From a virus (taxonomy: Duplodnaviria; Heunggongvirae; Uroviricota; Caudoviricetes), in the IMG/VR virus record IMGVR_UViG_3300042398_001452: a stretch of DNA of 64,000 nucleotides; one strand, 5' to 3'. Below are positions 1,112-18,478 of this stretch, piece by piece. How positions within the stretch are numbered: the stretch's first letter is position 1; each line of letters starts with the position of its first letter. The position numbers and the translations under genes are program-made. Below the pieces are notes generated by a model. That model saw only the letters and a program-made list of their open reading frames with translations, ran no database searches and was not told the DNA's origin.

Positions 1112-1126
1112 CTGAGGAACCCCAGG
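1112..1126. repeat. CTGGGGAACCCCAGG-family palindrome (PAL)
   Basis: CTGAGGAACCCCAGG, between a terminator and an EPM. Confidence 0.6.
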
Positions 1127-1140
1127 TGATTTGATCAGGA

Positions 1141-1181
1141 AATCATTTTTTTCTTTGTAGAAAAATCCATATATTAGCTAT
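1141..1181 (+). promoter_or_regulatory. EPM copy
   Basis: AATCATTTTTTTCTTTGTAGAAAAATCCATATATTAGCTAT directly abutting ATG 1182. Confidence 0.6.
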
Positions 1182-1511
1182 ATGAAAGATAAGGATATAT
1201 TACAAAGAATCAAACAACTATCGGTTGAAGATTGGTTTAAGAATGGTGATGATGCACCTGAAGAGATCTACGATGAGCTTTATGAAATAGAAGCTGAGAA
1301 CGATGATCTTGTGTATCTTCTCGAGTTAACTATTACAGGTCCAGGTCTCACCGATGTTTGGCTTTCCCGTGGTGTACTTATTGGTGATGTTTTTGCGTGG
1401 GGAGATGGATTAGAGGAAGGTGAGGAAGTTACTGAGGATGAGATCTACGAAGATAATCAAATGTTCATAGCGGAGAGAAGAGCTAATTTAATAGAGGAGA
1501 TCGTTTTATGA
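1182..1511 (+). CDS. hypothetical acidic protein (109 aa)
   Basis: Track ORF. EPM copy immediately upstream. Stop overlaps the start of the next gene (ATGA). Confidence 0.6.
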   Translation: MKDKDILQRIKQLSVEDWFKNGDDAPEEIYDELYEIEAENDDLVYLLELTITGPGLTDVWLSRGVLIGDVFAWGDGLEEGEEVTEDEIYEDNQMFIAERRANLIEEIVL

Positions 1512-2350
1512 AGTTAACTAATGAACAAATAGAATGGTTAAATAGCTGCCAAGGATGGGCTTACTTAAAAGCTAAATGGACATTTAACGAAGAAACCGGA
1601 CTAGTAGACGTAGATGGAGATTTTAAAACCCCAAATTCCCATAATTCTTGTAAAGCTTTAGGGAGGAACGGAGGTAAAAGATATGGAGGTATTTCTGATT
1701 TTATGGGTATTAAATTCGGTACTGTTACTGGTGATTTTGATTGCTCATATAACAATCTAACAAATCTAGAGGGAGCGCCTATTTACGTGGGAAAGAATTT
1801 TGATTGCTCATATAATGATCTCACAAGCTTAGTGGGAGCACCACAAGAAGTTGGAGGTTCCTTCAGTTGTATAGATAATAATCTCACAAGTCTTATTGGA
1901 TCTCCTCGAAGGGTTAATCGTCACTTCCACTGTGCTTACAACAAACTACCAAATCTAGTAGGAGCTCCTATGTACGTGGGAGAGAATTTCTGGTGCAGTG
2001 ATTTACCCAATGATCGTCATATAGAAAGTCTGCAGGGAGCAGAAGAATGTATAATACGGGGAGATTTCGATTGTCATTACAACAAATTGAAAGATTTAAA
2101 AGGTGCTCCTAGATTAATTTACGGTCAATTTAGGGTCTATGGTAATTATGAAGGAAATTACAAACGGATTAAAAAAGATACATTCGGGATAATAACCAGG
2201 ATAATGGAAGAAAAAAATCTAGGCTATTTTGGCGCTTTGTGCTATCTAAAAGACACCTTGGATAAGAAGGAATGGAACAAGCTAGCAAAAGGATATGATA
2301 TAACAGCCGAAGCTTTAAGAGCATATTCTATTATTTCAAGATATTCATAG
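1508..2350 (+). CDS. LRR-like repeat protein (about 7 tandem 22-23-aa repeats, F-C-x-Y-N-x-LTSL-x-GAP-x-V-G)
   Basis: Internal periodicity is visible in the translation: FDCSYNNLTNLEGAP / FDCSYNDLTSLVGAP / FSCIDNNLTSLIGSP and so on. LxxNxLxxL cores resemble leucine-rich repeats. Confidence 0.7.
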   Translation: MKLTNEQIEWLNSCQGWAYLKAKWTFNEETGLVDVDGDFKTPNSHNSCKALGRNGGKRYGGISDFMGIKFGTVTGDFDCSYNNLTNLEGAPIYVGKNFDCSYNDLTSLVGAPQEVGGSFSCIDNNLTSLIGSPRRVNRHFHCAYNKLPNLVGAPMYVGENFWCSDLPNDRHIESLQGAEECIIRGDFDCHYNKLKDLKGAPRLIYGQFRVYGNYEGNYKRIKKDTFGIITRIMEEKNLGYFGALCYLKDTLDKKEWNKLAKGYDITAEALRAYSIISRYS

Positions 2351-2392
2351 AATCATTTTTTTCTTTAAGTAGAATTTTCTACATTAGCTAAG
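2351..2392 (+). promoter_or_regulatory. EPM copy
   Basis: Upstream of the 2411 ORF. Confidence 0.6.
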
Positions 2393-2410
2393 TAACCAAA
2401 ATAAAAAAAT

Positions 2411-2887
2411 ATGAGAGATCACAGAAACCCACACGGAGCAAACACTCAAGAACTAAAAGAGCAAAAATTAGCGGATAATTTATTGTTCGCTGAATTCCAA
2501 TGGAACGATGCTAAGACATTAGAAGATAAGAAACGAGCTTTAGATCAGGTCAACCTCGCTATGAAAGAGATTGAAAAATTCGAAGCTGGTAGAAAGGACA
2601 ACAAGAAACCGAACCTTTACTTCGATGTGGATCCTTCGCTTATTCCTATGATGATGCAGGAGATGGAAGCTCGTATTATACGTCACGAAAGATTACAAAA
2701 TTGGCAGAACCCCGAATGGATGGACAAGCAATTGGATGAGTTAAGCAACTTGAAAGAGATGGGCTACTCCGAAAGTGAAGCATTGAAATATGTAGGTATC
2801 CTTGGTAATTCCGTTAGAGAGGTAAGAGAGATCCTAGATCTTGGTGTCGAATGGGACAACCAATCATGGGAAGAACAAAGAGGTTAA
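2411..2887 (+). CDS. hypothetical protein (158 aa)
   Basis: Track ORF with EPM upstream. Confidence 0.6.
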   Translation: MRDHRNPHGANTQELKEQKLADNLLFAEFQWNDAKTLEDKKRALDQVNLAMKEIEKFEAGRKDNKKPNLYFDVDPSLIPMMMQEMEARIIRHERLQNWQNPEWMDKQLDELSNLKEMGYSESEALKYVGILGNSVREVREILDLGVEWDNQSWEEQRG

Positions 2888-2894
2888 TTTACAA

Positions 2895-2938
2895 AATCAT
2901 TTTTTTTATTAAATAGAATTTTCTATATTAGCTAAGTA
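2895..2938 (+). promoter_or_regulatory. EPM copy
   Basis: Upstream of the 2959 ORF. Confidence 0.6.
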
Positions 2939-2958
2939 ACTAATTAAAACTAAAACCA

Positions 2959-3330
2959 ATGGCAAAATGTAACAACTGCGGGGACGAAAGAAAAATAGTA
3001 AGAGTCCTTTCATCTTGTGGATTAACAGGAGCGCGTCAATATGTAGAAATGGGAGAATGTGATTGTGACGACATCTCAGGAAGAATGGTAGACTTTGGTG
3101 AGAATCCCCACTACGAAGAGATTGAGGCTAAAAAAAAGTCCTATCCGCCTCATATTCAAAGAAAGATCGATCAGCTTGAAGAGCTAGAAGAAATGAATAT
3201 GGCATTGGGCTTTCACGACAAGATAGCTTCTGTTAGACATTTGATTGCTAAAGAAATAGAAGAAGAGGCAAAGAAAGAAGCGAGGGTTGCTAATAAAAGA
3301 GTAGAATCCGGATGGTTCATGTATACATGA
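2959..3330 (+). CDS. hypothetical protein with N-terminal Cys cluster (123 aa)
   Basis: Track ORF with EPM upstream. Contains CNNCG...C.CDD cysteines. A terminator follows. Confidence 0.6.
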   Translation: MAKCNNCGDERKIVRVLSSCGLTGARQYVEMGECDCDDISGRMVDFGENPHYEEIEAKKKSYPPHIQRKIDQLEELEEMNMALGFHDKIASVRHLIAKEIEEEAKKEARVANKRVESGWFMYT

Positions 3331-3384
3331 ACGTAACTATATAGCCGCTGCAAAACCGAGGGGTTAAGAGATGGCAAAACCAAG

Positions 3385-3410
3385 AGAGGACTTTTAAGTC
3401 CTCTTTTTTT
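3385..3410 (+). terminator. rho-independent terminator
   Basis: AGAGGACTTTTAAGTCCTCT plus T7. Confidence 0.7.
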
Positions 3411-3442
3411 GTGAAGAAAAAAATGAAAGCAATGGAGATACT

Positions 3443-3457
3443 CTGGGGAACCCCAGG
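3443..3457. repeat. PAL copy
   Basis: CTGGGGAACCCCAGG (perfect 6+2+6 palindrome). Confidence 0.65.
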
Positions 3458-3494
3458 AATCCTGATCAGGCTAAACCTATAGGTTGATTTCTGA

Positions 3495-3537
3495 AATCAT
3501 TTTTTTATCTGTAGAAAATTCTCTATATTAGCATTGT
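3495..3537 (+). promoter_or_regulatory. EPM copy
   Basis: Upstream of the 33-aa ORF at 3555. Confidence 0.55.
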
Positions 3538-3554
3538 AACCAAAATAAAATAAT

Positions 3555-3656
3555 ATGATGTTTTTAGTAATGATCGGAGAAGCCATCGCCGCTTCAAAAA
3601 GAAATAAATCAATATCTTCCGAGAGAGTAAGATATTATTCTTGGGGATCGGAGTAA
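3555..3656 (+). CDS. possible 33-aa peptide
   Basis: Short ORF (MMFLVMIGEAIAASKRNKSISSERVRYYSWGSE) placed exactly where the EPM copy at 3495 predicts a start. Terminator at 3688. Confidence 0.3.
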   Translation: MMFLVMIGEAIAASKRNKSISSERVRYYSWGSE

Positions 3657-3687
3657 GGTAAATTCACATATCGTAATTTTATTATAA

Positions 3688-3710
3688 AGAGGCTATACGC
3701 CTCTTTTTTT
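3688..3710 (+). terminator. rho-independent terminator
   Basis: AGAGGC-TATAC-GCCTCT plus T7. Confidence 0.7.
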
Positions 3711-3714
3711 CAGA

Positions 3715-3760
3715 AATCATTTTTTTATTTATGTAGAATTTTCTATATTTGTATTGTAAC
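3715..3760 (+). promoter_or_regulatory. EPM copy
   Basis: Upstream of the 3778 ORF. Confidence 0.6.
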
Positions 3761-3777
3761 CAATTAAAATAATTAAA

Positions 3778-4278
3778 ATGAAAAAGGGGGAACTAGAAAG
3801 AGTCGAAGGCATTATAGGAAGATATGGGGGTGCAAAAGAATGCGAGATTTGGGTCACTGCGGTAGAGCCAGACGGTGACTGGGAAGCTCCAGGACATTGG
3901 CCAATGTACACTCCAACCATTAAACTATCCATAGTATTAATAAAAGAATCTGGAGAGATCGACCTAATTCTAGATAAGCTTAGAAGCGGTGATTTTACAG
4001 TTGACCTTGACGGAGCAGATTTCTGCGATGAATTGACTAACAATGTTTTGGATAAAGATAGTATAATTTACGAAGCTAGTAAAGCTAAGGATCTTGATGA
4101 ATTTATAGAAAATCTCCAGGACGAAGTATACTCTGCTACTTTAGATTGGTATCGTGAAAATTATGAGTTAGATGAGGATGATGAAGATGCGGAGGATGCT
4201 TGGAATGGCGACGGTATTAACGATGATGCTTTATCAGAGATAACATATTCGGGAGGTAAAGGATTTAAAGTCGGATAG
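3778..4278 (+). CDS. hypothetical protein (166 aa), tandem paralog of 4305..4793
   Basis: N-terminus MKKGELERVEGIIGRYG matches MKKKELERVTSIIERYA of the next gene. EPM upstream. Confidence 0.65.
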   Translation: MKKGELERVEGIIGRYGGAKECEIWVTAVEPDGDWEAPGHWPMYTPTIKLSIVLIKESGEIDLILDKLRSGDFTVDLDGADFCDELTNNVLDKDSIIYEASKAKDLDEFIENLQDEVYSATLDWYRENYELDEDDEDAEDAWNGDGINDDALSEITYSGGKGFKVG

Positions 4279-4304
4279 AAATAATTAAATTAAAAAAGAT
4301 TAAA

Positions 4305-4793
4305 ATGAAAAAGAAAGAACTGGAAAGGGTCACATCGATTATAGAAAGATACGCACCAATGATAAATTGTACTATAAATTTAATGGGCATCATAATAACG
4401 GATCCAGAAAGACTCGATTGTGCAGATAGCTTTGACGGATCAATAGATGTTCAAATAATGGACTCTCGAATAGAAGAAATAAACAAAGAAAGAGTTCTTG
4501 AAAAAATAGCTAAAGGCGATTTCAAAGTTACCTGTGAAAGAGGACCAGATGGATTTATACGCCGTTTGGATGCTCTTTTAAATAAAAAGAATATAGCTAG
4601 TAAAGCGAATATGTCTGATAATTTAGAAGAATTTGTTGAAGAATTACAAGATGAGATGAATGATATATCATGTGATTACGCAGATAAGTTATTTGGCGAC
4701 GAATGGCATCCTGATATGTTCTATGAGCAGATAAGTATTTCTTACAAGTACTTCAGTGAAGATGGTGTTATAGTATTTGATAAAGAAAAATAA
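4305..4793 (+). CDS. hypothetical protein (162 aa), tandem paralog of 3778..4278
   Basis: Shared N-terminal and mid-region similarity with the preceding gene. Terminator at 4815. Confidence 0.65.
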   Translation: MKKKELERVTSIIERYAPMINCTINLMGIIITDPERLDCADSFDGSIDVQIMDSRIEEINKERVLEKIAKGDFKVTCERGPDGFIRRLDALLNKKNIASKANMSDNLEEFVEELQDEMNDISCDYADKLFGDEWHPDMFYEQISISYKYFSEDGVIVFDKEK

Positions 4794-4814
4794 TAATATT
4801 AATACTTTAACAAG

Positions 4815-4837
4815 AAGACCCTTCGGGGTCTTTTTTT
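4815..4837 (+). terminator. rho-independent terminator
   Basis: AGACCC-TTCG-GGGTCT plus T7. Confidence 0.75.
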
Positions 4838-4868
4838 GTGGAGAAAAAACTTAGGATGTCTAGATTTA

Positions 4869-4883
4869 CTGGGGAACCCCAGG
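4869..4883. repeat. PAL copy
   Basis: CTGGGGAACCCCAGG. Confidence 0.65.
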
Positions 4884-4898
4884 TGAATTAATTTCAGA

Positions 4899-4940
4899 AA
4901 TCATTTTTTTATTTGTAGAAAATTCCATACATTAGCTAAG
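4899..4940 (+). promoter_or_regulatory. EPM copy
   Basis: Upstream of the 4954 ORF. Confidence 0.6.
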
Positions 4941-4953
4941 TAAATCAATCAGA

Positions 4954-5301
4954 ATGAAATGTCAAAGATGCGGTAACGAAGTTAAGGAACACACGATGTC
5001 TATGTTTAATATCCAAACTATTTGTTTACCTTGTAAGAAGATCGAAAAGAAGCATCCGAAATATGAAGAAGCTTGTAAAACCGATCTCGAATATATTAGG
5101 GCAGGCGACTATAACTTTCCTGGTATCGGTTGGGACGCTTTGACGTATGAGGAAAGAATAGCTTGGTTCGTTAGCAAGTATTACGAGAGTGGTATGGAAT
5201 ACCAGAGCTTACTAGTTACTATGAAGGACGAAGACCTTGACAATTTCAAATGGTACGATGAGGTGATTAAGTTTCCTAAATATAGATGCGAAATTAAATA
5301 A
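4954..5301 (+). CDS. hypothetical zinc-ribbon protein (115 aa)
   Basis: CQRCGNEV...CLPCKK gives two CxxC pairs. EPM upstream. Confidence 0.6.
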   Translation: MKCQRCGNEVKEHTMSMFNIQTICLPCKKIEKKHPKYEEACKTDLEYIRAGDYNFPGIGWDALTYEERIAWFVSKYYESGMEYQSLLVTMKDEDLDNFKWYDEVIKFPKYRCEIK

Positions 5302-5302
5302 C

Positions 5303-5638
5303 ATGGCAGAGAAAATAGACCCACTAAAAATTGCAAGGTCCTCCAGAGACATGGACGTGAAAGGACTCGTAGGATTCTTTTATGCGCACCAAAGTAAATT
5401 CTGGTCGTGGGGACCGCATAATTTTGTAGATGTCAAAGGTAGAGGCTTACGCTTTAATGTTCAAGGACACCACCACACTGGACATGTGTATCTGTTCGTT
5501 AATGGATTGGACTTGTTCGATATTTACCTTACCTCATCTCATGGTACGATAAAAGAAACTATAAACGATGTTTACTTAGACGATTTGTTTGATACTCTTG
5601 ATAAGAAGATCGAATGGATTGATATTTATGAAGATTAA
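5303..5638 (+). CDS. hypothetical protein (111 aa)
   Basis: Track ORF, translationally coupled to the upstream gene. Confidence 0.55.
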   Translation: MAEKIDPLKIARSSRDMDVKGLVGFFYAHQSKFWSWGPHNFVDVKGRGLRFNVQGHHHTGHVYLFVNGLDLFDIYLTSSHGTIKETINDVYLDDLFDTLDKKIEWIDIYED

Positions 5639-5660
5639 AATAATTTCAATTATTTTCAGA

Positions 5661-5705
5661 AATCATTTTTTTCTTTAAGTAGAAATTTCTATATTTGTAA
5701 TGTTA
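5661..5705 (+). promoter_or_regulatory. EPM copy
   Basis: Upstream of the sigma-factor gene at 5725. Confidence 0.6.
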
Positions 5706-5724
5706 ATCAATTAAACAAAAGCAA

Positions 5725-6597
5725 ATGACAAATTTAAAGCACCACGTTTTCCAACAGTCAGTTACAGGACGTAACGAAGTAGTAGACGCTTACCTAAGCG
5801 AAATCAACAAAATCTCTCCGATCACTGCGGAAGAGGAAAAAACATTATGCAGTCGAATTATCAATGGTGGAGACGAAAGAGCTCGTCAAAGATTTGTCGA
5901 GGGTAACTTAAAAATCGTTGTATCAATCGCAAAGCAGTATCAAGGTACGGGTCTAGAATTAATGGACTTGATAAACGAAGGTAATGTCGGTTTGGTTAAG
6001 GCGTCACAGTTCTACGACCCTAGTGTTAAAGAAAAATACACCGACAGTGGTAAAACTGTTCGTTTTGTATCCTTCGCAGTTTGGTGGGTTCGTCAGGCAA
6101 TCTTAGAGGCGGTAAAAGAAAAAGGTCGTATAGTTAAAGTACCACAAAATCAACTAAACGCTCAAAGAAAGATCGCTAAGGAAATGGACCAAATCATGAA
6201 GACCGAAGGATACACCTCAGTCGAAATGGCAGCGGAATCTTTAGGTTTCGAACCGGACAAATACCAAACACAATCATCGGTTTCGCTAAGCACACCAATC
6301 GGAGAAGAAGACTTCACCCTAGGCGATACAATGTCTGACGGAACAGTTTCAGATGCGGGATTAGAAAAACTAAGTTTCATTAAACAAATCTCCGCAGTAC
6401 TAAGCACCTTAGACGAAAGAGAAAACTTCGTTATCTCCAACTGGTTCGGTATCAACGGTCAATCTATAAAAAGAAAAGATGAGATCGCAAAAGAACTCGG
6501 AGTATCTCAAGAACGTATAGAACAAATCTACCACAAAGGAATTCGAAAACTTAAAGCTTCGAGCCGATCACGATTATTAAAGCCTTTCGTTTCATAG
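5725..6597 (+). CDS. sigma-70 family RNA polymerase sigma factor (phage-encoded), 290 aa
   Basis: Region 2 signature (LINEGNVGLVKA...FVSFAVWWVRQAI) and region 4.2 HTH (KDEIAKELGVSQERIEQIYHKGIRKLK). EPM upstream. Confidence 0.8.
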   Translation: MTNLKHHVFQQSVTGRNEVVDAYLSEINKISPITAEEEKTLCSRIINGGDERARQRFVEGNLKIVVSIAKQYQGTGLELMDLINEGNVGLVKASQFYDPSVKEKYTDSGKTVRFVSFAVWWVRQAILEAVKEKGRIVKVPQNQLNAQRKIAKEMDQIMKTEGYTSVEMAAESLGFEPDKYQTQSSVSLSTPIGEEDFTLGDTMSDGTVSDAGLEKLSFIKQISAVLSTLDERENFVISNWFGINGQSIKRKDEIAKELGVSQERIEQIYHKGIRKLKASSRSRLLKPFVS

Positions 6598-6620
6598 GTT
6601 TGATTGATTAACAAAAAAGA

Positions 6621-6646
6621 GAGGAGACTTCGGTCTCCTTTTTTTG
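6621..6646 (+). terminator. rho-independent terminator
   Basis: GAGGAGAC-TTCG-GTCTCC plus T7. Confidence 0.75.
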
Positions 6647-6674
6647 TGTGATATTATTCACTGAATGATAAATT

Positions 6675-6689
6675 CTGAGGTTCCCCAGG
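6675..6689. repeat. PAL copy
   Basis: CTGAGGTTCCCCAGG. Confidence 0.55.
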
Positions 6690-6764
6690 AGATTTAGTCA
6701 GGTTTAAAAAAGAAGAAAATGAAAGATTGTATTTATTATATCCCCACGAGATTAATAAGATCTA

Positions 6765-6800
6765 GGGGTCCCCACCCGGAGGCCGCGCACGCGTAGGAGG
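6765..6800. repeat. GCH copy 2
   Basis: GGGGTCCCCACCCGGAGGCCGCGCACGCGTAGGAGG, 5' of EPM 6819. Confidence 0.55.
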
Positions 6801-6818
6801 TTTTTAGAAAAAACCAGG

Positions 6819-6858
6819 AATCATTTTTTTAATTAAATAAGATTACTTATATTAGCTA
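6819..6858 (+). promoter_or_regulatory. EPM copy
   Basis: Upstream of the 6860 ORF. Confidence 0.55.
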
Positions 6859-6859
6859 T

Positions 6860-11436: not shown

Positions 11437-11446
11437 TCCCAACCCA

Positions 11447-12440: not shown

Positions 12441-12482
12441 AATCATTTTTATTTCTGTAGAATAATCTATACTTTAGCCTAG
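12441..12482 (+). promoter_or_regulatory. EPM copy
   Basis: Upstream of the 12504 ORF. Confidence 0.55.
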
Positions 12483-12503
12483 TTAATCAATCAAATAAAA
12501 ACA

Positions 12504-12866
12504 ATGACAAAAGAAACTTTAAATGCAGATTTGATAAATCAAATCATCAAGATGGATGGGGAACTTGATAAGGACCCAACGTACAAGAAGTATGAAAAAA
12601 TATTTGCAACTCAAAAAATAAAAGAGAGTATAGCAAAGAACTTCGGTATCGAGGCTGACCTTGTACCACAAGAGATGGTAGATGATCTACTAGTTTTCGC
12701 TGAAGAAAATAGCAGTGGCAACGGGCTAACTCCAGAGCTCGTAGTAAGCAGGAAAGATGAAGTGATGGAACTAGTTGAAGCTATAATCGATGTAGCCAAC
12801 TGGGATGAGGAATATGAACTAAGTCATAAACTTAAAGTGTTCGTAGACCTTCTTAAACAACTATAA
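12504..12866 (+). CDS. hypothetical acidic protein (120 aa)
   Basis: Track ORF with EPM upstream and terminator downstream. Confidence 0.55.
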   Translation: MTKETLNADLINQIIKMDGELDKDPTYKKYEKIFATQKIKESIAKNFGIEADLVPQEMVDDLLVFAEENSSGNGLTPELVVSRKDEVMELVEAIIDVANWDEEYELSHKLKVFVDLLKQL

Positions 12867-12884
12867 GAACTCAACAAAAAACAG

Positions 12885-12908
12885 AAGCCAGCAATGCTGG
12901 CTTTTTTT
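12885..12908 (+). terminator. rho-independent terminator
   Basis: AGCCAGCA-ATGC-TGGCT plus T7. Confidence 0.7.
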
Positions 12909-12938
12909 GTGCAACAAACCTAGGCCAGCATGATTCAC

Positions 12939-12953
12939 CTGAGGCTCCCCAGG
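12939..12953. repeat. PAL copy
   Basis: CTGAGGCTCCCCAGG within the extended element. Confidence 0.55.
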
Positions 12954-12976
12954 CTAGGAATCAAGAAAGATTCAGA

Positions 12977-13018
12977 AATCATTTTTTTGTTTGTGGAAAA
13001 ATCTATATATTAGCTATG
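12977..13018 (+). promoter_or_regulatory. EPM copy
   Basis: Upstream of the 13042 ORF. Confidence 0.6.
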
Positions 13019-13041
13019 TTAATCAATTAAAACACTAGCTT

Positions 13042-13197
13042 ATGTACTCTTTAGATTGTGACTATTACACAAAACAATTTTCATCCATCGATGAACTTCT
13101 AACAGATATTGTATTATCTGGTATGGACCCGAACTATGTAATAACATATAATGGTGTTACTATAGGATATCAAGCTATTGAACTAATACAATTTTAA
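13042..13197 (+). CDS. possible 51-aa protein
   Basis: ATG placed after EPM copy 12977. Next EPM copy follows immediately at 13200. Confidence 0.35.
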   Translation: MYSLDCDYYTKQFSSIDELLTDIVLSGMDPNYVITYNGVTIGYQAIELIQF

Positions 13198-13199
13198 GA

Positions 13200-13240
13200 A
13201 ATCATTTTTTTAATCAAATAGAATTTTCTACATTTACATT
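13200..13240 (+). promoter_or_regulatory. EPM copy
   Basis: Upstream of the 13256 ORF. Confidence 0.55.
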
Positions 13241-13255
13241 ATAAAACAAAATCAC

Positions 13256-13483
13256 ATGATACTCTTTATAACAATTTTCATCTTAGCTCTCCTGGTCCCC
13301 GTAATCACACAGACAGTAGGAATTGACCAATCCACAAATCAATATAAGGAGAGCTACATCGCGGAGGTGGGTGCCACCAGTTACTTTACCCTACCTCGAG
13401 GACAGCCCAAGTCACGGGCTTCTATTATAACAAACAAATCACTCCCACGCAACAAGGGAGAGCCCAAAGAAAACTCAAGTTAA
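13256..13483 (+). CDS. hypothetical protein with N-terminal transmembrane segment (75 aa)
   Basis: Track ORF with EPM upstream. Confidence 0.45.
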   Translation: MILFITIFILALLVPVITQTVGIDQSTNQYKESYIAEVGATSYFTLPRGQPKSRASIITNKSLPRNKGEPKENSS

Positions 13484-13487
13484 AAAA

Positions 13488-13512
13488 AAGACTCCACAAG
13501 GGTCTTTTTTTG
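13488..13512 (+). terminator. rho-independent terminator
   Basis: AGACTC-CACAA-GGGTCT (imperfect) plus T7. Confidence 0.6.
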
Positions 13513-13548
13513 TGGACCAAGTTTTTCAAATAGCATATGCTAGATTCT

Positions 13549-13564
13549 CTGAGGAACCACAGAG
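13549..13564. repeat. PAL copy (degenerate)
   Basis: CTGAGGAACCACAGAG. Confidence 0.45.
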
Positions 13565-13606
13565 AATCATTTTTTTATTTGTGGAAAAATCTTTATATTT
13601 GGATAT
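13565..13606 (+). promoter_or_regulatory. EPM copy
   Basis: Upstream of the 13634 ORF. Confidence 0.55.
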
Positions 13607-13633
13607 ATAAGTATAAATAAATAAAAAATTAAA

Positions 13634-14137
13634 ATGAAACACATTAAATTATTTGAGGGATTCATGAAGAATCCAAATCCTTATAAGGACATAACAGAAA
13701 GAGGTGAGTCTGTTTTCTTATTCCACGAAGAAGATTCTATTTGGTTTGGAATATTTCCAGATAATGTTGCGGAGGATCTTAAATATGCTTCTGAAGATTA
13801 TATGAAACATGCAATATCTAAAGGTTTAGGAGAGGAATATTACGATGTTTTTGTTGACCGAAGAGAAGGACTAGCTTATGTTGAATGGGAAGGTAAAAAT
13901 GGATGGAATGCTTGTACCCCAGGAGAAATTGATGTAAACGATTATAATTATGTTATGATGCCAGATGGAACTGAAATAGAAATTAATCCATCTGCTAAAT
14001 ATTCATCTCTTCCTTTATTTGCTTTAGAAAGAGGAATGATAACACACTATCAAGGAAACCACGGTAATGAACCTATGACTGTTCGAGAATACATGGATCA
14101 TTTAGAAAGTGGAAAATCAGATTGGTATTCTATGTAA
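13634..14137 (+). CDS. leader-family protein (N-terminus MKHIKLFEGF), 167 aa
   Basis: Carries the conserved N-terminal decapeptide shared by 17 proteins in this window. EPM upstream. Confidence 0.65.
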   Translation: MKHIKLFEGFMKNPNPYKDITERGESVFLFHEEDSIWFGIFPDNVAEDLKYASEDYMKHAISKGLGEEYYDVFVDRREGLAYVEWEGKNGWNACTPGEIDVNDYNYVMMPDGTEIEINPSAKYSSLPLFALERGMITHYQGNHGNEPMTVREYMDHLESGKSDWYSM

Positions 14138-14157
14138 GAAATAAAATATATCTAAAA

Positions 14158-14182
14158 AAAGACCCTACAAGGGTCTTTTTTT
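14158..14182 (+). terminator. rho-independent terminator
   Basis: AGACCC-TACAA-GGGTCT plus T8. Confidence 0.75.
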
Positions 14183-14222
14183 ATGCTCCAAGGTTTACAG
14201 TAAACAGTCTACTGTAAACCAA

Positions 14223-14237
14223 CTGAGGAACCTCAGG
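14223..14237. repeat. PAL copy
   Basis: CTGAGGAACCTCAGG, where both arms changed (G to A with C to T) and the palindrome is preserved. Confidence 0.65.
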
Positions 14238-14287
14238 AAAATAGATGTAGAGAAGGATTACATCTATAACTACATCTATAACTATAG

Positions 14288-14333
14288 CGGGCTCCCCCGG
14301 GGGACGCGTGCGTACGTGTGCACGCGTAGGCAC
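14288..14333. repeat. GCH copy 4
   Basis: GGGCTCCCCCGGGGGACGCGTGCGTACGTGTGCACGCGTAGGCAC carries a perfect 8-bp hairpin ACGCGTGC-gtacgtgt-GCACGCGT. 5' of EPM 14345. Confidence 0.6.
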
Positions 14334-14344
14334 TTTTTTTCAGA

Positions 14345-14388
14345 AATCATTTTTTTATTTGTAGAAAATTCCATACATTAGCTATGTT
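14345..14388 (+). promoter_or_regulatory. EPM copy
   Basis: Upstream of the 14409 ORF. Confidence 0.6.
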
Positions 14389-14408
14389 AATCAATTAAAT
14401 ATATACAA

Positions 14409-14543
14409 ATGGAAAGAACAATCAATTTTATCGCTTGGAGCCTTATCACTGTTTTAGCTTCACTTACAATCTATGGTATACTTTACGCAGCTATACAGAT
14501 AGTTATAGGTAATGTACATTCAACAGCAAGCTTTGAATTTTAA
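14409..14543 (+). CDS. possible 44-aa membrane peptide
   Basis: ATG immediately after EPM copy 14345. Hydrophobic. Confidence 0.3.
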   Translation: MERTINFIAWSLITVLASLTIYGILYAAIQIVIGNVHSTASFEF

Positions 14544-14547
14544 AAAA

Positions 14548-14709
14548 AATGAAAACTGTAATAACAAAATCACAACTTCTTAAGATAGAATCCGGGAGAG
14601 TCAGAGAAGACCAGAAAGCCCAAGGTTTCTTCGATGGAAGATTTGTTACAAGAGCTCAAGATTCAAAAAAGAAATACTCCCGCAAGGAGAAGCACAAGGG
14701 CATCAACTA
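14548..14709 (+). CDS. possible 53-aa basic peptide
   Basis: Small ORF between the preceding peptide and the terminator at 14730. Confidence 0.3.
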
Positions 14710-14729
14710 AGAAACAAAACCCTATCTAC

Positions 14730-14757
14730 CCCTTGTCCGTTCGGACAGGGGTTTTTT
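14730..14757 (+). terminator. rho-independent terminator
   Basis: CCTTGTCCG-TTCG-GACAGGGG plus T6. Confidence 0.7.
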
Positions 14758-14786
14758 GTGCGAATCCAAAATCCCTCTTAATCATC

Positions 14787-14802
14787 CTGGGGTTCCGCCG
14801 AG
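14787..14802. repeat. PAL copy (degenerate)
   Basis: CTGGGGTTCCGCCGAG. Confidence 0.4.
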
Positions 14803-14872
14803 TGGATTCAAAGAATCAGACCTCCTGAGATACCCCGAAAACTTTTTTCAAAAAAAATCAGAAATCATTTTT

Positions 14873-14914
14873 TTATTTGTAGAAAATTCTATATTTTAGC
14901 TAAGTTAATCAATT
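14873..14914 (+). promoter_or_regulatory. EPM copy
   Basis: Upstream of the 14929 ORF. Confidence 0.6.
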
Positions 14915-14928
14915 AAACAATATCAATT

Positions 14929-15249
14929 ATGAAAAAGGAAATGACAATGGAACAAAAAGCAAAAAAAGCAGCAGCGAACAAAGCTTACCGTGAGCGTAAG
15001 AAAAACCAAGCGGCAACTCCGAATTGGATGGAATTGGATAAGTTCGAAATGAGTTTCACTCACAAAATTCGACTTTTCAAAAACCTCAAATTGGAAATCA
15101 CAAATTCCTACTGCGCTTCCCCTGGTACAGTTTTGAGATTTGAAAAAATTAAAAACGAAGATAATAAAATTATCTTTCGAGTACGCCGCACCGGTCGTCG
15201 CACCTTCTTCACCACCTCGACTAACCTACACGCACCAGTCGAGGCGTGA
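14929..15249 (+). CDS. member C of the 4-copy basic-protein paralog family
   Basis: MKKEMTMEQKAKKAAANKAYRERKK...RVRRTGRRTFFTT. EPM upstream. Confidence 0.7.
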   Translation: MKKEMTMEQKAKKAAANKAYRERKKNQAATPNWMELDKFEMSFTHKIRLFKNLKLEITNSYCASPGTVLRFEKIKNEDNKIIFRVRRTGRRTFFTTSTNLHAPVEA

Positions 15250-15273
15250 TCGGGGTGGATGTAAAAAACCCAC

Positions 15274-15297
15274 GGGAATCTTCGGATTCCCTTTTTT
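15274..15297 (+). terminator. rho-independent terminator (paralogous hairpin GGGAATC-TTCG-GATTCCC)
   Basis: Hairpin plus T6. Same hairpin family as those at 15576 and 16604. Confidence 0.7.
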
Positions 15298-15310
15298 ACA
15301 TCCAAGCCCA

Positions 15311-15325
15311 CTGCGGTTCCGCAGG
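15311..15325. repeat. PAL copy
   Basis: CTGCGGTTCCGCAGG, where both arms changed (G to C with C to G) and the palindrome is preserved. Confidence 0.65.
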
Positions 15326-15357
15326 GAGACAGAAATTATTTTAAATAAAAATTCGAA

Positions 15358-15401
15358 AATCATTTTTTTATTTGTAGAAAATTCTATATATTAGCTATGT
15401 T
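15358..15401 (+). promoter_or_regulatory. EPM copy (exact consensus)
   Basis: Upstream of the 15422 ORF. Confidence 0.6.
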
Positions 15402-15421
15402 AATCAATCAAATAAAAACAT

Positions 15422-15571
15422 ATGAAATCAGAAACAAAAAAGAAATTAGAATTTCTAAAATCATTAGGATTGTCAGAAAATGAAATTAGTGAATTATTAG
15501 ATTCCCAATTCATCCTCGACCAATCCCAAGAATTTAAAAGGGAGGAAATTGAAGAAGAAGAAGAGTTTTAA
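15422..15571 (+). CDS. possible 49-aa acidic peptide
   Basis: ATG right after EPM copy 15358. Terminator at 15576. Confidence 0.35.
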   Translation: MKSETKKKLEFLKSLGLSENEISELLDSQFILDQSQEFKREEIEEEEEF

Positions 15572-15575
15572 AATT

Positions 15576-15600
15576 GGGGAATCTCCGGATTCCCTTTTTA
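15576..15600 (+). terminator. rho-independent terminator (GGGGAATC-TCCG-GATTCCC)
   Basis: Hairpin plus T5. Confidence 0.65.
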
Positions 15601-15613
15601 ATTTATATACCCT

Positions 15614-15630
15614 CTGCGGAACCCCAGAGG
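15614..15630. repeat. PAL copy
   Basis: CTGCGGAACCCCAGAGG. Confidence 0.55.
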
Positions 15631-15673
15631 GGCTCCATGGGGGACGCGTGCGTACGTGCGCCCGCGTAGAGGG
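15631..15673. repeat. GCH copy 5
   Basis: GGCTCCATGGGGGACGCGTGCGTACGTGCGCCCGCGTAGAGGG, 5' of EPM 15684. Confidence 0.55.
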
Positions 15674-15683
15674 TTTTTTCAGA

Positions 15684-15724
15684 AATCATTTTTTTATCTT
15701 CCCTAGATTTATTATATTTACACT
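15684..15724 (+). promoter_or_regulatory. EPM copy (degenerate)
   Basis: Abuts ATG 15725. Confidence 0.45.
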
Positions 15725-15928
15725 ATGTCACTAACACCACAACAATTAAAAGCTAATGCAGACTTCTTTAATAATGTAGCTGCAATGACCAAGATGTATG
15801 TGTGGCCTGATACTGGCCACATTTATAAAATAGAAGAAGGGATCTTTATCTGTGACTCCCCGGAATCATTTAATGATTTAAAAGATAACACTCCAGAAAC
15901 TTTCCATTATAAAATCAAAATGAAATAA
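15725..15928 (+). CDS. hypothetical protein (67 aa)
   Basis: Track ORF with EPM upstream. Confidence 0.5.
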   Translation: MSLTPQQLKANADFFNNVAAMTKMYVWPDTGHIYKIEEGIFICDSPESFNDLKDNTPETFHYKIKMK

Positions 15929-15981
15929 AATAAATCCTTATATTTGTATTATACATTTAAATTTTATTCCCATAAAATTTG

Positions 15982-16010
15982 AACCCTAGAAGAAATTCTA
16001 GGGTTTTTTT
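15982..16010 (+). terminator. rho-independent terminator
   Basis: AACCCTAGA-AGAAAT-TCTAGGGTT plus T7. Confidence 0.75.
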
Positions 16011-16072
16011 GTGTAATCAAAATACAAGCATATAGTAAGACACCGGAGTTTCCTCGATAGATCTTATACCCC

Positions 16073-16090
16073 ATAGCGGAACCCCAGGGG
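16073..16090. repeat. PAL copy (first of a 3-copy cluster)
   Basis: ATAGCGGAACCCCAGGGG. Confidence 0.55.
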
Positions 16091-16119
16091 ATAAAAAAAA
16101 ATTAAATATATAAAACCCC

Positions 16120-16134
16120 CTGCGGAACCCCCAG
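16120..16134. repeat. PAL copy (cluster)
   Basis: CTGCGGAACCCCCAG. Confidence 0.55.
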
Positions 16135-16156
16135 TTAAAATTTTAAAAAATACCTT

Positions 16157-16176
16157 GGAAGGTTCCGCAGGGAACC
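16157..16176. repeat. PAL-related palindrome in shifted register (cluster)
   Basis: GGAAGGTTCCGCAGGGAACC contains GGTTCC-gcag-GGAACC. Confidence 0.5.
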
Positions 16177-16215
16177 ATTAAAATAAATTTTTAGAAATTT
16201 CCACTTTTTTCCAAG

Positions 16216-16258
16216 AATCATTTTTTTGTTTGTAGAAAAATCCATATATTAGCTATGT
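16216..16258 (+). promoter_or_regulatory. EPM copy
   Basis: Upstream of the 16281 ORF. Confidence 0.6.
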
Positions 16259-16280
16259 TAATCAATTAAACAAAAACAAA

Positions 16281-16583
16281 ATGAAAAAGGAAACAGTAAA
16301 AAAACCAGTTGCTAAAAAATCAGTTAAAAATTCTAACACTCCAGAATGGTTAAATCTGGAAAAGTTTGAAATGAGTTTTGAACATAAAATCAGACTTTTT
16401 AGAAATCTGAAACTTGAAACTACAAACTCCTACTGTGCAACTCCGGGTACTCCTCTTAAATTTGAAAAAATTAAAAATGAGGATAACAAGATTGTTTATC
16501 GAGTTCGCCGCAACGGTCGTAGAACTTTCTTTACAACTTGCGACCATTTGAAAAATCAAGTTGAAACAATACCCGCGGAATAA
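16281..16583 (+). CDS. member D of the 4-copy basic-protein paralog family
   Basis: ...WLNLEKFEMSFEHKIRLFRNLKLE...RVRRNGRRTFFTT. EPM upstream. Confidence 0.7.
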   Translation: MKKETVKKPVAKKSVKNSNTPEWLNLEKFEMSFEHKIRLFRNLKLETTNSYCATPGTPLKFEKIKNEDNKIVYRVRRNGRRTFFTTCDHLKNQVETIPAE

Positions 16584-16603
16584 TCGGGTTTACAAAAAAT
16601 AAA

Positions 16604-16628
16604 GGGGGAATCTCCGGATTCCCTTTTT
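16604..16628 (+). terminator. rho-independent terminator (GGGGGAATC-TCCG-GATTCCC)
   Basis: Hairpin plus T5. Confidence 0.65.
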
Positions 16629-16641
16629 AATAAAAATTTCT

Positions 16642-16656
16642 CTGCGGAACCCCAGG
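16642..16656. repeat. PAL copy
   Basis: CTGCGGAACCCCAGG. Confidence 0.6.
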
Positions 16657-16680
16657 AACACTGATCAGAAAAGATTCAGA

Positions 16681-16722
16681 AATCATTTTTTTTATTTGGA
16701 AAAATCTATTATATTAGCTATG
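16681..16722 (+). promoter_or_regulatory. EPM copy
   Basis: Upstream of the 16741 ORF. Confidence 0.55.
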
Positions 16723-17003: not shown

Positions 17004-17032
17004 AACCCTAGATTGATCATCTAGGGTTTTTT
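17004..17032 (+). terminator. rho-independent terminator
   Basis: AACCCTAGAT-TGATC-ATCTAGGGTT plus T6. Confidence 0.75.
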
Positions 17033-17065
17033 GTGTGTAAAAAAAATCTATACTATATGATTCCC

Positions 17066-17080
17066 CTGCGGCACCCCAAC
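17066..17080. repeat. PAL copy (CTGCGGCACCCC subtype)
   Basis: CTGCGGCACCCCAAC. Confidence 0.5.
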
Positions 17081-17122
17081 GAGATTTTTTATGTATTTAA
17101 TTTTTATATACTATTTTTACAT

Positions 17123-17137
17123 TGGGGGAACCGCAGG
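17123..17137. repeat. PAL copy
   Basis: TGGGGGAACCGCAGG. Confidence 0.5.
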
Positions 17138-17161
17138 AAGACTAATAAGAAAAGATTTAGA

Positions 17162-17205
17162 AATCATTTTTTTATATGTAGAAAAATCCATATATTTATA
17201 TAATC
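17162..17205 (+). promoter_or_regulatory. EPM copy with no ORF downstream (ATG-TAA immediately, then a terminator)
   Basis: The motif is intact. The downstream 17222..17297 region ends in a hairpin plus T-run. Confidence 0.5.
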
Positions 17206-17266: not shown

Positions 17267-17296
17267 GAAGAGTTGTATAACTCTTCTTTTTTTTGT
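17267..17296 (+). terminator. rho-independent terminator closing the ORF-less transcript from EPM 17162
   Basis: GAAGAGTT-GTAT-AACTCTTC plus T8. Confidence 0.65.
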
Positions 17297-17323
17297 GGAA
17301 AATTTTAAAACTATTTAAGCTCC

Positions 17324-17337
17324 CTGAGGAACCCCAC
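17324..17337. repeat. PAL copy
   Basis: CTGAGGAACCCCAC. Confidence 0.5.
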
Positions 17338-17417
17338 ATAAAAATTGTAGAGTATAATAGTAAAGTAATAGTAAGAATAGTAAGTAATAGTAGTAAAAAT
17401 GTATTACCATAATTCCT

Positions 17418-17432
17418 CTGCGGCACCCCAGG
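17418..17432. repeat. PAL copy (CTGCGGCACCCCAGG subtype)
   Basis: CTGCGGCACCCCAGG. Confidence 0.6.
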
Positions 17433-17462
17433 GTGGTAAATATATAATTAACTATTTTCAGA

Positions 17463-17505
17463 AATCATTTTTTTATATGTAGTATAATCCATATATTTAC
17501 TTAAT
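17463..17505 (+). promoter_or_regulatory. EPM copy
   Basis: Upstream of the 17519 ORF. Confidence 0.55.
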
Positions 17506-17518
17506 CAATCATTCAAAC

Positions 17519-17755
17519 ATGGCATCATCTAAAACATCTTCAAGCATTAGTATCACAACAGTACTATTTCTGATATTCCTAACTCTTAAACTAACTAACC
17601 TCATAGCATGGTCTTGGTGGTGGGTCACAGCTCCTTTATGGATACCTGTATTACTAGCAATAGCTATTATAGTGATAGCTGCATCAGTAATCATTATTGC
17701 ATTTGCTCTAGGATTCTCCGGAGATGACATTAAAAGAAGAATAAGAAGAAATTAA
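17519..17755 (+). CDS. hypothetical membrane protein (78 aa)
   Basis: Track ORF with EPM upstream. Hydrophobic W-rich core. Confidence 0.5.
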   Translation: MASSKTSSSISITTVLFLIFLTLKLTNLIAWSWWWVTAPLWIPVLLAIAIIVIAASVIIIAFALGFSGDDIKRRIRRN

Positions 17756-17771
17756 CTTAACACACAATATA

Positions 17772-18008
17772 ATGGAAAATCAAACAAAAGTAGATTATCT
17801 AAAAACACTCTTTACTGTAACAGAAGTACAAGATGAAGGATGTAGCTTTGAAGCTCCCGACTGCTATGAAGCATATATCTTATTTGAAGACTTTCAAGTA
17901 GGGGACACCGCGAATGATATATGTAGTGCTTCAGAATACTACTCATGCTGTGGAGACGTATTAGACAAAGACTATATGATGTGTCCAACTTGCTACGAAC
18001 ATTGCTAA
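17772..18008 (+). CDS. hypothetical Cys-rich protein (78 aa)
   Basis: Track ORF. CxxC...CC...CPTC cysteines. Terminator at 18041. Confidence 0.5.
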   Translation: MENQTKVDYLKTLFTVTEVQDEGCSFEAPDCYEAYILFEDFQVGDTANDICSASEYYSCCGDVLDKDYMMCPTCYEHC

Positions 18009-18040
18009 TTTCATAGTTCATAGATTAACAAAAAAAGAGA

Positions 18041-18062
18041 GGAGCTTTATGCTCCTTTTTTT
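18041..18062 (+). terminator. rho-independent terminator
   Basis: GGAGC-TTTAT-GCTCC plus T7. Confidence 0.7.
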
Positions 18063-18081
18063 ATGCACATCTCTTTTCCCT

Positions 18082-18096
18082 CTGCGGCACCCCAGG
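18082..18096. repeat. PAL copy (CTGCGGCACCCCAGG subtype)
   Basis: CTGCGGCACCCCAGG. Confidence 0.6.
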
Positions 18097-18128
18097 GAAT
18101 ACAATTAATATAATTAATTATTTTCAGA

Positions 18129-18172
18129 AATCATTTTTTTATTCGTGGAAAAATCCATATATTTATATAGTT
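18129..18172 (+). promoter_or_regulatory. EPM copy
   Basis: Upstream of the 18193 ORF. Confidence 0.55.
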
Positions 18173-18192
18173 AATCAATTAAACATATAAAC

Positions 18193-18372
18193 ATGAAAAA
18201 ACTAAATCTCTTCATCACACTAACTATCCTAGTATTACCAATAGGAACTATCCTAATGCTAGGAGGTAATCACATAGGAGAATACCTAGTATCAATAGGC
18301 TCTATTATGGGTCTTTATACATGCTACCTTCTAGACCAAGAAGAACAGAAAAAACCCGAAAACCAACCCTAA
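18193..18372 (+). CDS. possible 59-aa membrane peptide
   Basis: ATG after EPM copy 18129. Hydrophobic N-terminal two-thirds. Confidence 0.4.
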   Translation: MKKLNLFITLTILVLPIGTILMLGGNHIGEYLVSIGSIMGLYTCYLLDQEEQKKPENQP

Positions 18373-18415
18373 AAAATAGCCCCCTAAAAAGGGCTATATT
18401 TATATGGTAAAACCC

Positions 18416-18430
18416 CTGCGGCACCCCCTA
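18416..18430. repeat. PAL copy (subtype)
   Basis: CTGCGGCACCCCCTA. Confidence 0.5.
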
Positions 18431-18461
18431 GTGAAAAATGATAAATCTTTCATTTATCACA

Positions 18462-18478
18462 CTGAGGCACCCCCACAT
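18462..18478. repeat. PAL copy (subtype)
   Basis: CTGAGGCACCCCCACAT. Confidence 0.5.

Follow-up and report, generated by a model that had tools for sequence, protein, structure and literature searches.

The stretch of viral DNA analyzed here, a 64,000-nucleotide piece of the IMG/VR record IMGVR_UViG_3300042398_001452 (Caudoviricetes; hereafter the window), carries near one end a multiply repeated 14-bp intergenic palindrome. Its consensus is yyyCTGRGG-AA-CCYCAGgaa, in which two CTGRGG half-sites are arranged in a 6-2-6 geometry. We find that this repeat is real, selected and clade-wide, and that it represents a new cis-element of an ordinary kind; a literature search for the 14-mer recovered no paper containing it. 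We propose, with a confidence that we would put at about even, that the palindrome is a dyad-symmetric double-stranded DNA site for a predicted dimeric DNA-binding protein, and forms the third element of a junction module that otherwise comprises a terminator and a promoter. Protein binding and regulation of the promoter are what we infer from the sequence, and this proposal fits the presence of invariant, contact-like positions, the freedom of positions 4, 7, 8 and 11, and the approximately 10-bp phasing of the site with the promoter.

The strict pattern CTGVGGWWCCBCAG has 12 matches in the window (0 expected), every one of them within 1112-16655. The relaxed core CTGNGGNNCCNCAG yields 17 exact and three one-mismatch copies between 1112 and 18095, against an expectation of 0.29 and a prediction of about zero from shuffled sequence; its lone further one-mismatch match, at 56516, lies in coding sequence and looks like a chance occurrence. 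A two-mismatch search adds degenerate intergenic copies at 16074, 16120, 17123, 18416 and 18462, and one more, near 16166, was read from the sequence, giving an overall total of about 26 copies between 1112 and 18475. An earlier note on this DNA had counted 26 palindromes, a figure that is reached only when the relaxed and degenerate copies are included. Its observations that a CTGCGGCACCCC subtype dominates at 17-18.5 kb and that the copies cease past 19 kb both hold, as the pattern scans found no intergenic palindrome copy in the window beyond that point.

The copies occur in a region (1-18.3 kb) where a conserved promoter block of about 55 nt is repeated 32 times and about 40 small genes lie on the + strand; the block consists of AATCATTTTTTT, 17 nt, and then TAnnTT(T/A)G. 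At 22 junctions there is additionally a GC-rich hairpin followed by a T-run, i.e. an intrinsic terminator, usually ending in TTTTTTTGTG. Except for the copies at 18416 and 18462, which have no + strand promoter downstream, the palindromes sit between the intrinsic terminator and the next promoter block, 13-40 nt past the T-run and 2-130 nt ahead of the block. The fixed place in every cassette that had been assigned to them is therefore correct as regards the order of the elements, but the motif is present at only 20 of the 32 promoter junctions, those with a terminator, and the variable distance to the promoter speaks against a fixed place in any stricter sense. The palindrome is not itself an intrinsic terminator, as it has no T-run on its 3' side and the actual terminator lies upstream of it.

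To place these copies in a wider context we used relatives collected by pattern scan, namely three IMG/VR contigs (86, 206 and 248 kb), at least 120 metagenome stretches, and two contigs of one metagenome-assembled genome (MAG). This set provides at least 323 non-redundant copies from at least 116 loci, or 255 copies after dereplication (the window and at least 115 related contigs). The earlier note had suggested searching related phage genomes for the palindrome, and the same module is indeed found on at least 115 related contigs, including the 206-kb contig (L138), which is about 84% identical to positions 320-3555 of the window. More distant phages, with only the sigma factor in common (L139-L144), have neither the promoter block nor the dyad.

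A sequence logo of the 255 copies, reading yyyCTGRGGAACCYCAGgaa, shows an information content of 1.6-2.0 bits at positions 1-3, 5-6, 9-10 and 12-14, 0.4-0.9 bits at positions 4, 7, 8 and 11, and about 0.1 bit in the flanks; position 4 is a purine and position 11 a pyrimidine, each varying independently. The same partition emerges from BLAST-aligned junctions in which the subject was not required to contain the motif, a comparison that is thus free of ascertainment though its members are partly non-independent. Here differences are seen at 17 of 410 sites (4.1%) for the ten fixed positions, compared with 14-16% for the flanks and 30 of 164 (18%) for the variable positions 4, 7, 8 and 11; G5, G6, C9 and C10 show no change at all. 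The fixed positions hence evolve about 3.5 times more slowly than the adjacent flanks in the same aligned junctions. This indicates selection on the primary sequence itself, and does not bear out the earlier suggestion that selection acts on something other than primary sequence. The conserved identity of these bases, taken together with the independent variation of positions 4 and 11, is characteristic of two half-sites that are recognized base-specifically.

The same data bear on whether the palindrome might merely be a functionless relic, an ancestral junction fragment that was copied along with the terminator-promoter module and has not yet decayed. All copies are indeed kin by descent within a repeated module, and degenerate ones exist at 16074-16172, 17123, 18416 and 18462. 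However, among 220 terminator-to-promoter junctions of the window and its relatives, the 10/10 core is intact in 156 (71%), and one, two, and three or more mismatches are found in 31, 22 and 11, respectively; this distribution is strongly bimodal with very few intermediates, whereas shuffled junctions peak at 4-5 mismatches. Given this bimodality, the slow evolution of the fixed positions relative to their neighbors, and the persistence of the motif across at least 115 divergent contigs with nearly uninformative flanks, we consider it scarcely probable that the palindrome is such a relic.

The earlier note had based both of its readings, a hairpin or a symmetric protein-binding site, on covariation, i.e. 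on variants whose two arms change in concert so that the dyad symmetry stays perfect. We find no such covariation, and it can serve as a basis for neither. Only two of the 16 non-G/C copies in the 20-copy set of the window are compensated (14223, A-T; 15311, C-G), and the 4/11 pair is mismatched in 14 of the 20, exactly as independent assortment predicts (Watson-Crick pairing in 6 of 20, 6.25 expected; P=0.67). Across 24 aligned copies, in 18 of which this pair is unpaired, a formal pair count yields a covariation score of 0.085; the shuffles give 0.088, and 276 out of 500 of them score at least as high. In the 255 dereplicated copies positions 4 and 11 are paired in 80 cases, below the 98.9 expected; neither the symmetric pairs nor ten flanking positions on each side show any excess of pairing, and there is no copy-specific complementarity of the flanks that would extend a stem. 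The apparent compensatory variants are a selection effect that disappears under an objective count.

These results weigh directly on the possibility of an RNA hairpin or DNA cruciform, for instance an RNase III-type processing site, a transcript stabilizer or an extruded cruciform, that is kept by compensatory substitutions. A 5-bp stem closed by a GAAC loop is available to the canonical 14-mer (-6.7 kcal/mol as RNA), and chance extensions of the stem occur in a few copies (13549, 15614). Nevertheless, the fold is no stronger than -2.5 kcal/mol as RNA in 14 of the 20 window copies, for which the DNA values are 0 to -1.1, and with DNA parameters all copies fall between 0 and -3.8. The central pair, which is AA in about 70% of the copies (AA, TT, CA, CT, AT, TA and CG are all seen), is seldom self-complementary, and the second commonest variant, CTGAGGAACCCCAG, with 56 of the 323 copies, is asymmetric. 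The stem bases are kept in identity, beyond what mere pairing would require, and since the element is placed after the terminator and before the next promoter it would be transcribed only by read-through. An Rfam scan of 1-19 kb found no family, the sole hit in the window being a transfer-messenger RNA (tmRNA) at 23446, and a known RNA family was accordingly rejected. An outer stem formed by the GGCCAGC...CCAGCC flanks was likewise rejected, because these flanks are not complementary and show no copy-specific pairing. In the absence of covariation and with such weak folds, we reject the covarying hairpin; the hairpin reading is largely refuted and retains in our estimation only a very small probability, leaving the symmetric protein site as the part of the earlier interpretation that fits the data.

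Further evidence for a protein site comes from its spacing relative to the promoter. The distances between palindrome and promoter block fall into discrete classes of 14-15 nt (71 copies), 24-26, 33-36, 44-46 and 53-56 nt, with diverse spacer sequences within each class, in addition to an off-phase group at 38-40 nt that mostly shares one insert. Once spacers are dereplicated at 70% identity, the Fourier spectrum of the spacings has its maximum at 9.5-10 bp, a power that none of 5000 jittered sets attains (P<2e-4). Dereplication at 60% leaves the periodicity in place (P about 0.002), and it is also seen among spacings longer than 32 nt, beyond the reach of the retrieval pattern (P about 0.01). 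Distances measured from the terminator have their strongest period at about 16 nt, with a weaker 10-11-bp component (P about 0.004-0.04). The approximately 10-bp spacing is thus a helical phasing with the promoter, albeit one that weakens under harsh dereplication. Flavobacterial sigma-A recognizes a TAnnTTTG box at -12 to -5 (PMC9723704), and if the -7 box of the promoter block occupies these positions, the dyad center would fall near -62/-63 in the main spacing class, a coordinate that depends on this assignment of the box.

Based on these observations we suggest that a dimer, encoded either by the phage or by its host, would recognize the two half-sites base-specifically; in the host variant this might be a hijacked Bacteroidota regulator that recognizes CTGRGGNNCCYCAG. 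The order of the module, intrinsic terminator, dyad and early promoter, recurs at the start of each transcription unit. The bound dimer would share a helix face with the promoter downstream of it, with the dyad center near -62 and the alternatives displaced upstream by about one helical turn per step. The bound protein could then control the first promoter of each unit, and about 20 early units would be switched together, by either activation or repression.

Several observations weigh against this proposal. The presence of the palindrome tracks the terminator: of the 22 junctions that have a terminator 20 also have the palindrome, whereas the 10 that do not are all devoid of it. Among 610 promoters of the same type, 379 have no palindrome within 120 nt and yet possess equally good -7 boxes, suggesting that the site is probably not needed for promoter function; as the quality of the box is the same with and without the dyad, we also rejected the idea that the dyad rescues weak promoters. 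Two degenerate copies (18416, 18462) lie past the last terminator (18376-18397) with no + strand promoter downstream. Copies near promoters tend to be better preserved, but with retrieval bias removed the difference is marginal (75% versus 61%, P=0.055). The periodicity is lost on dereplication at 50% identity, which flattens the peaks because it merges only items of similar length, and part of it could reflect spacer types that descend from a common ancestor. Finally, scans against Pfam, PHROGs and NCBIfam found no helix-turn-helix, ribbon-helix-helix, ParB or recombinase domain in the early region, where the open reading frames (ORFs) yield a sigma factor (5725-6597), an M28 peptidase and a zeta/AAA_33 kinase, all others being unknowns; nor was a ParB or recombinase found in the rest of the window, 106 ORFs of which were scanned against Pfam.

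Some of these points would fit a boundary or insulator, at which the dyad-bound protein acts as a roadblock past the terminator and shields the next promoter from occlusion by read-through polymerase. The functional partner of the dyad would then be the terminator rather than the promoter. The occurrence of the motif at terminator junctions only, its position 13-40 nt past the T-run, the two promoter-less copies and the existence of promoters of equal box quality that lack it are all consistent with such a role. However, the helical phasing is with the promoter, the 10-11-bp component relative to the terminator being the weaker one, and a roadblock needs no fixed face relative to a promoter. 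Moreover, the terminator-less junctions offer no non-coding room at -56 to -69, so that the association with terminators might have a trivial cause, and the two promoter-less copies are degenerate, with two mismatches each. On balance we judge the insulator improbable, though well short of negligible; on account of the equal -7 boxes, the tracking of terminators and the promoter-less copies it stays a serious rival of the promoter-associated protein site.

The early region is also subject to extensive shuffling, which raises the question of whether the dyad is the site at which cassettes are exchanged. Comparison of 1-17 kb of the window with L138 shows collinear sequences that differ by insertions, deletions and replacements of whole cassettes. 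Paralogous cassette genes (8054-8359, 11083-11394, 14929-15249 and 16281-16583) encode a common C-terminal ...RVRRTGRRTFFTT-like tail, the DNA of which is conserved just 5' of the terminators, pointing to gene families duplicated within the cassette array. A site-specific recombination or cassette-capture site of an attC- or crossover-like type, at which promoter-gene-terminator cassettes are inserted or excised, would agree with this modularity and with one insertion relative to L138 that begins about 10 nt past the palindrome at 7272; the 6-2-6 geometry and asymmetric center are also superficially similar to serine-recombinase crossover sites. Yet the breakpoints are dispersed over promoter blocks (3555/4900, 12972), terminator tails (7957, 11433) and gene interiors, and the ends of the high-scoring segment pairs are not centered on the dyad, for which reason we rejected recombination at this site. 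Furthermore, the central dinucleotide is the most variable part of the motif, although a crossover overlap must match between partners, and no recombinase family was found in the 64-kb window, let alone the adjacent integrase that accompanies attC-type sites. The shuffling is accounted for by homologous recombination between repeated regulatory modules, as proposed for the promoter-early stem-loops (PeSLs) of T4-type phages (Comeau et al. 2014, PMC4122927), and matches this process rather than crossover at the dyad. We therefore hold a recombination site to be very unlikely. The more specific version, an attachment or crossover site of integron-like cassette capture in a jumbo phage, with the enzyme encoded elsewhere in the approximately 200-kb genome, has in our view only a slim chance of being correct, and is disfavored on the basis of 64 kb and one close genome pair.

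The individual copies, all on the + strand, illustrate the variation described above. Those matched by both the strict and the relaxed pattern include the canonical CTGGGGAACCCCAG at 3443-3456, 4869-4882 and 8432-8445 (38, 16 and 15 nt before the promoter blocks at 3495, 4899 and 8461, respectively) and at 10949-10962, where it is flanked by GGCCAGCTTGATTCAC and GATCCAGCC. Mismatched at positions 4/11 are the A/C copies at 1112-1125 (the asymmetric variant introduced above, 15 nt before the block at 1141) and 6675-6688 (CTGAGGTTCCCCAG, 130 nt before the block at 6819), the G/G copy at 7272-7285 (CTGGGGAACCGCAG, 24 nt before the block at 7310), and the C/C copies at 11447-11460 (CTGCGGTTCCCCAG), 15614-15627 and 16642-16655 (both CTGCGGAACCCCAG). 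The two compensated variants are CTGAGGAACCTCAG at 14223-14236 and CTGCGGTTCCGCAG at 15311-15324. The relaxed pattern additionally retrieves CTGGGGAACCACAG at 12392-12405 (G/A), CTGAGGCTCCCCAG at 12939-12952 (A/C), CTGAGGAACCACAG at 13549-13562 (A/A, 2 nt ahead of the promoter block), CTGGGGTTCCGCCG at 14787-14800, CTGCGGCACCCCAA at 17066-17079 and CTGAGGAACCCCAC at 17324-17337 (the last three with one mismatch to the core), and CTGCGGCACCCCAG at both 17418-17431 and 18082-18095. Three longer copies with common flanks had been described in the earlier note; both flanks are indeed shared by the copies at 10949 and 12392, but that at 12939 has only the left one in common with them. The degenerate copies from the two-mismatch search are TAGCGGAACCCCAG at 16074-16087, CTGCGGAACCCCCAG at 16120-16134 (with one extra C), TGGGGGAACCGCAG at 17123-17136, CTGCGGCACCCCCT at 18416-18429, located after the last cassette terminator, and CTGAGGCACCCCCA at 18462-18475; the copy read from the sequence is GGAAGGTTCCGCAG, at approximately 16159-16172.

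The corresponding junction modules, also on the + strand, begin with that at approximately 1047-1177, in which the terminator hairpin and T-run are followed by the palindrome and a promoter block of the form AATCATTTTTTT..TAnnTTAG. Others with the same organization lie at 3372-3531, 4817-4935, 8377-8497, 10885-11053, 11398-11523, 12331-12477, 12887-13013, 13493-13601, 14730-14899, 15274-15394, 16606-16717 and 18041-18165, and at 7208-7346, where a cassette is inserted about 10 nt past the palindrome relative to L138. The module at 15984-16252 contains three degenerate copies at 46-nt spacing, and those at 17006-17198 and 17267-17499 contain two copies each. Three modules (6623-6855, 14161-14381 and 15577-15720) include a second intergenic repeat, a GC-rich element of about 45 nt (GGGGTCCC..GGAGGCCGCG..) whose end is a perfect alternation of purines and pyrimidines (e.g. 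ACGCGTGCGTACGTGTGCACGCGTA) that has the potential to adopt the Z-DNA form. This element is found at approximately 585-635, 6762-6800, 10440-10485, 14285-14335, 15628-15672 and 18883-18906, is located directly upstream of some early promoters, and is kept in relatives (e.g. L002, at about 9320, and L003).

Some early promoters (2351, 2895, 3715, 5661, 9534, 11017, 13200, 14863 and 15358) form a subclass with a 6-2-6 dyad of their own, GTAGAA-WW-TTCTAC, in the spacer that separates the T-run from the -7 box; this dyad could be a second operator overlapping the core promoter. At the end of the region a lone minus-strand early promoter block (at about 18621) is followed some 60-70 nt later by a terminator hairpin (18536-18516), and this segment (18515-18635, minus strand) looks like a very short non-coding transcription unit that closes the cassette region. 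Beyond it, 18640-19100 is non-coding and rich in GGGCC/GGCCC repeats.

As to the source of this DNA, the window has about 33% G+C, a megablast search of 1-20 kb against deposited phages gave no match, the helicase and sigma factor have phage relatives with only 30-43% identity, and the best phage protein hits are at about 30%. It belongs to a large uncultured freshwater jumbo phage, in which 1-18 kb is the early, host-takeover-like region. The window encodes two RpoD-like sigma-70 factors of 290 and 287 amino acids (5725-6597 and 41416-42279), each with regions 1.2, 2, 3 and 4, the first lying inside the early cassette region. Shine-Dalgarno-like motifs precede only 5 of 117 genes. The combination of a TAnnTTTG-like box, rare Shine-Dalgarno motifs and two RpoD-like sigma genes leads us to infer Bacteroidota-type expression, and both the promoters and the starts lacking a Shine-Dalgarno motif point to Bacteroidota hosts. 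A scan with the E. coli sigma-70 consensus returned 58 hits against 66 expected, and promoters of that type were rejected for this lack of enrichment. The only real matches among genome contigs are two short contigs with typical junction modules (L135, JBEIFG010000127.1, and L136, JBEIFG010000090.1) in a MAG labeled 'Chlamydiales', which is the sole host-type label available. Given the Bacteroidota-type signals this label is probably a binning artifact, and we set a Chlamydiales host aside.

Other genes of the window include, in the early region, that at 4954-5301, which encodes a CxxC-N17-CxxC zinc-ribbon protein with sub-threshold similarity to TraR/DksA-like and anti-sigma Fin-like proteins; three conserved early proteins, used as queries in a sequence search of the PDB, produced nothing beyond a sub-threshold match to a TraR-like zinc ribbon, for this gene product. 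Together with the adjacent gene (5303-5638) it is 96% identical in nucleotide sequence to L138, the value for neighboring genes being about 80%. A full-length tmRNA gene lies at 23446-23866 on the + strand (Rfam RF00023, 92.7 bits), for which ARAGORN predicts an unusually long tag. The auxiliary gene content of 19.7-64 kb is unusual: genes there, including those at 50027-51007 and 60731-62305, code for a deoxyhypusine synthase, an S-adenosylmethionine decarboxylase, ClpP, a PAS histidine kinase, a response-regulator receiver, a protein with a hit to the VCH_CASS14 integron-cassette-protein family and a NUMOD4/HNH endonuclease.

The palindrome thus marks about 20 early transcription units in a widespread clade of uncultured freshwater jumbo phages, represented by at least 115 metagenomic contigs. 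To our knowledge, transcription control in phages that infect Bacteroidota has been little studied, and a promoter-phased dyad offers a concrete and cheap handle on the regulator that would switch the host-takeover genes.

Among known repeated palindromes, the bacterial repetitive extragenic palindromes (REPs) are imperfect hairpins of 20-40 nt that act in RNA or as targets of gyrase, IHF or RAYT. Like REPs and the mosaic elements built of them (bacterial interspersed mosaic elements, BIMEs), the element described here is a repeated intergenic palindrome downstream of genes, but it is only 14 bp long, is not kept as a hairpin and lies beyond the terminator. Parallels are also offered by KorB/ParB-type sites, which are short palindromes repeated 10-25 times over a replicon. 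The KorB operator OB, a 13-bp palindrome (TTTAGCSGCTAAA) present in 12 copies on plasmid RK2, is similarly intergenic and located at a variable distance upstream of promoters, an arrangement that allows global, coordinated control. The present copies differ from it in sequence, in their restriction to an early region of 18 kb and in their association with terminators, and no ParB/KorB-like gene was detected in the 64 kb of the window, which is part of a genome of roughly 200 kb. Dyad-symmetric sites upstream of a core promoter are also typical of CRP class I promoters, with centers at -61.5, -72.5, -82.5 and -92.5, and of the P2/P4 late promoters, with a TGT-N12-ACA dyad near -55 that is bound by Ogr/Delta. 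With the -7 box placed as above, the center would fall near -62, with alternatives about one helical turn apart, and a single motif is common to a whole temporal class of phage promoters. However, the sequence, CTGRGG-N2-CCYCAG, is unrelated to either (the CRP/FNR consensus TGTGA-N6-TCACA is not matched), and here most promoters of the same class are without the site and look equally good.

At the level of the whole module, the resemblance is to the PeSLs of T4-type phages (Arbiol et al. 2010, PMC2839356; Comeau et al. 2014, PMC4122927). In both cases short composites of a terminator and an early promoter are present in many copies in a region whose genes are small, variable and mostly ORFans, and close genomes differ by insertion, deletion or replacement of whole cassettes at the modules. 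In the window, 1-18.3 kb is a plastic region with 32 promoter blocks and 22 terminator stem-loops, and the cassette changes relative to L138 break at modules. As described, PeSLs have two parts, the stem-loop and a sigma-70-type promoter (TTGACA/TATAAT-like) that is not enriched in the window, whereas the promoter here is of the Bacteroidota type, with a T-run at about -33 and TAnnTT(T/A)G at about -7, and none of the deposited phages is closely related to this one. PeSL-like modular cassettes therefore occur beyond the T4-type phages, here with a third, independently conserved element, the 14-bp dyad, between the terminator and the promoter.

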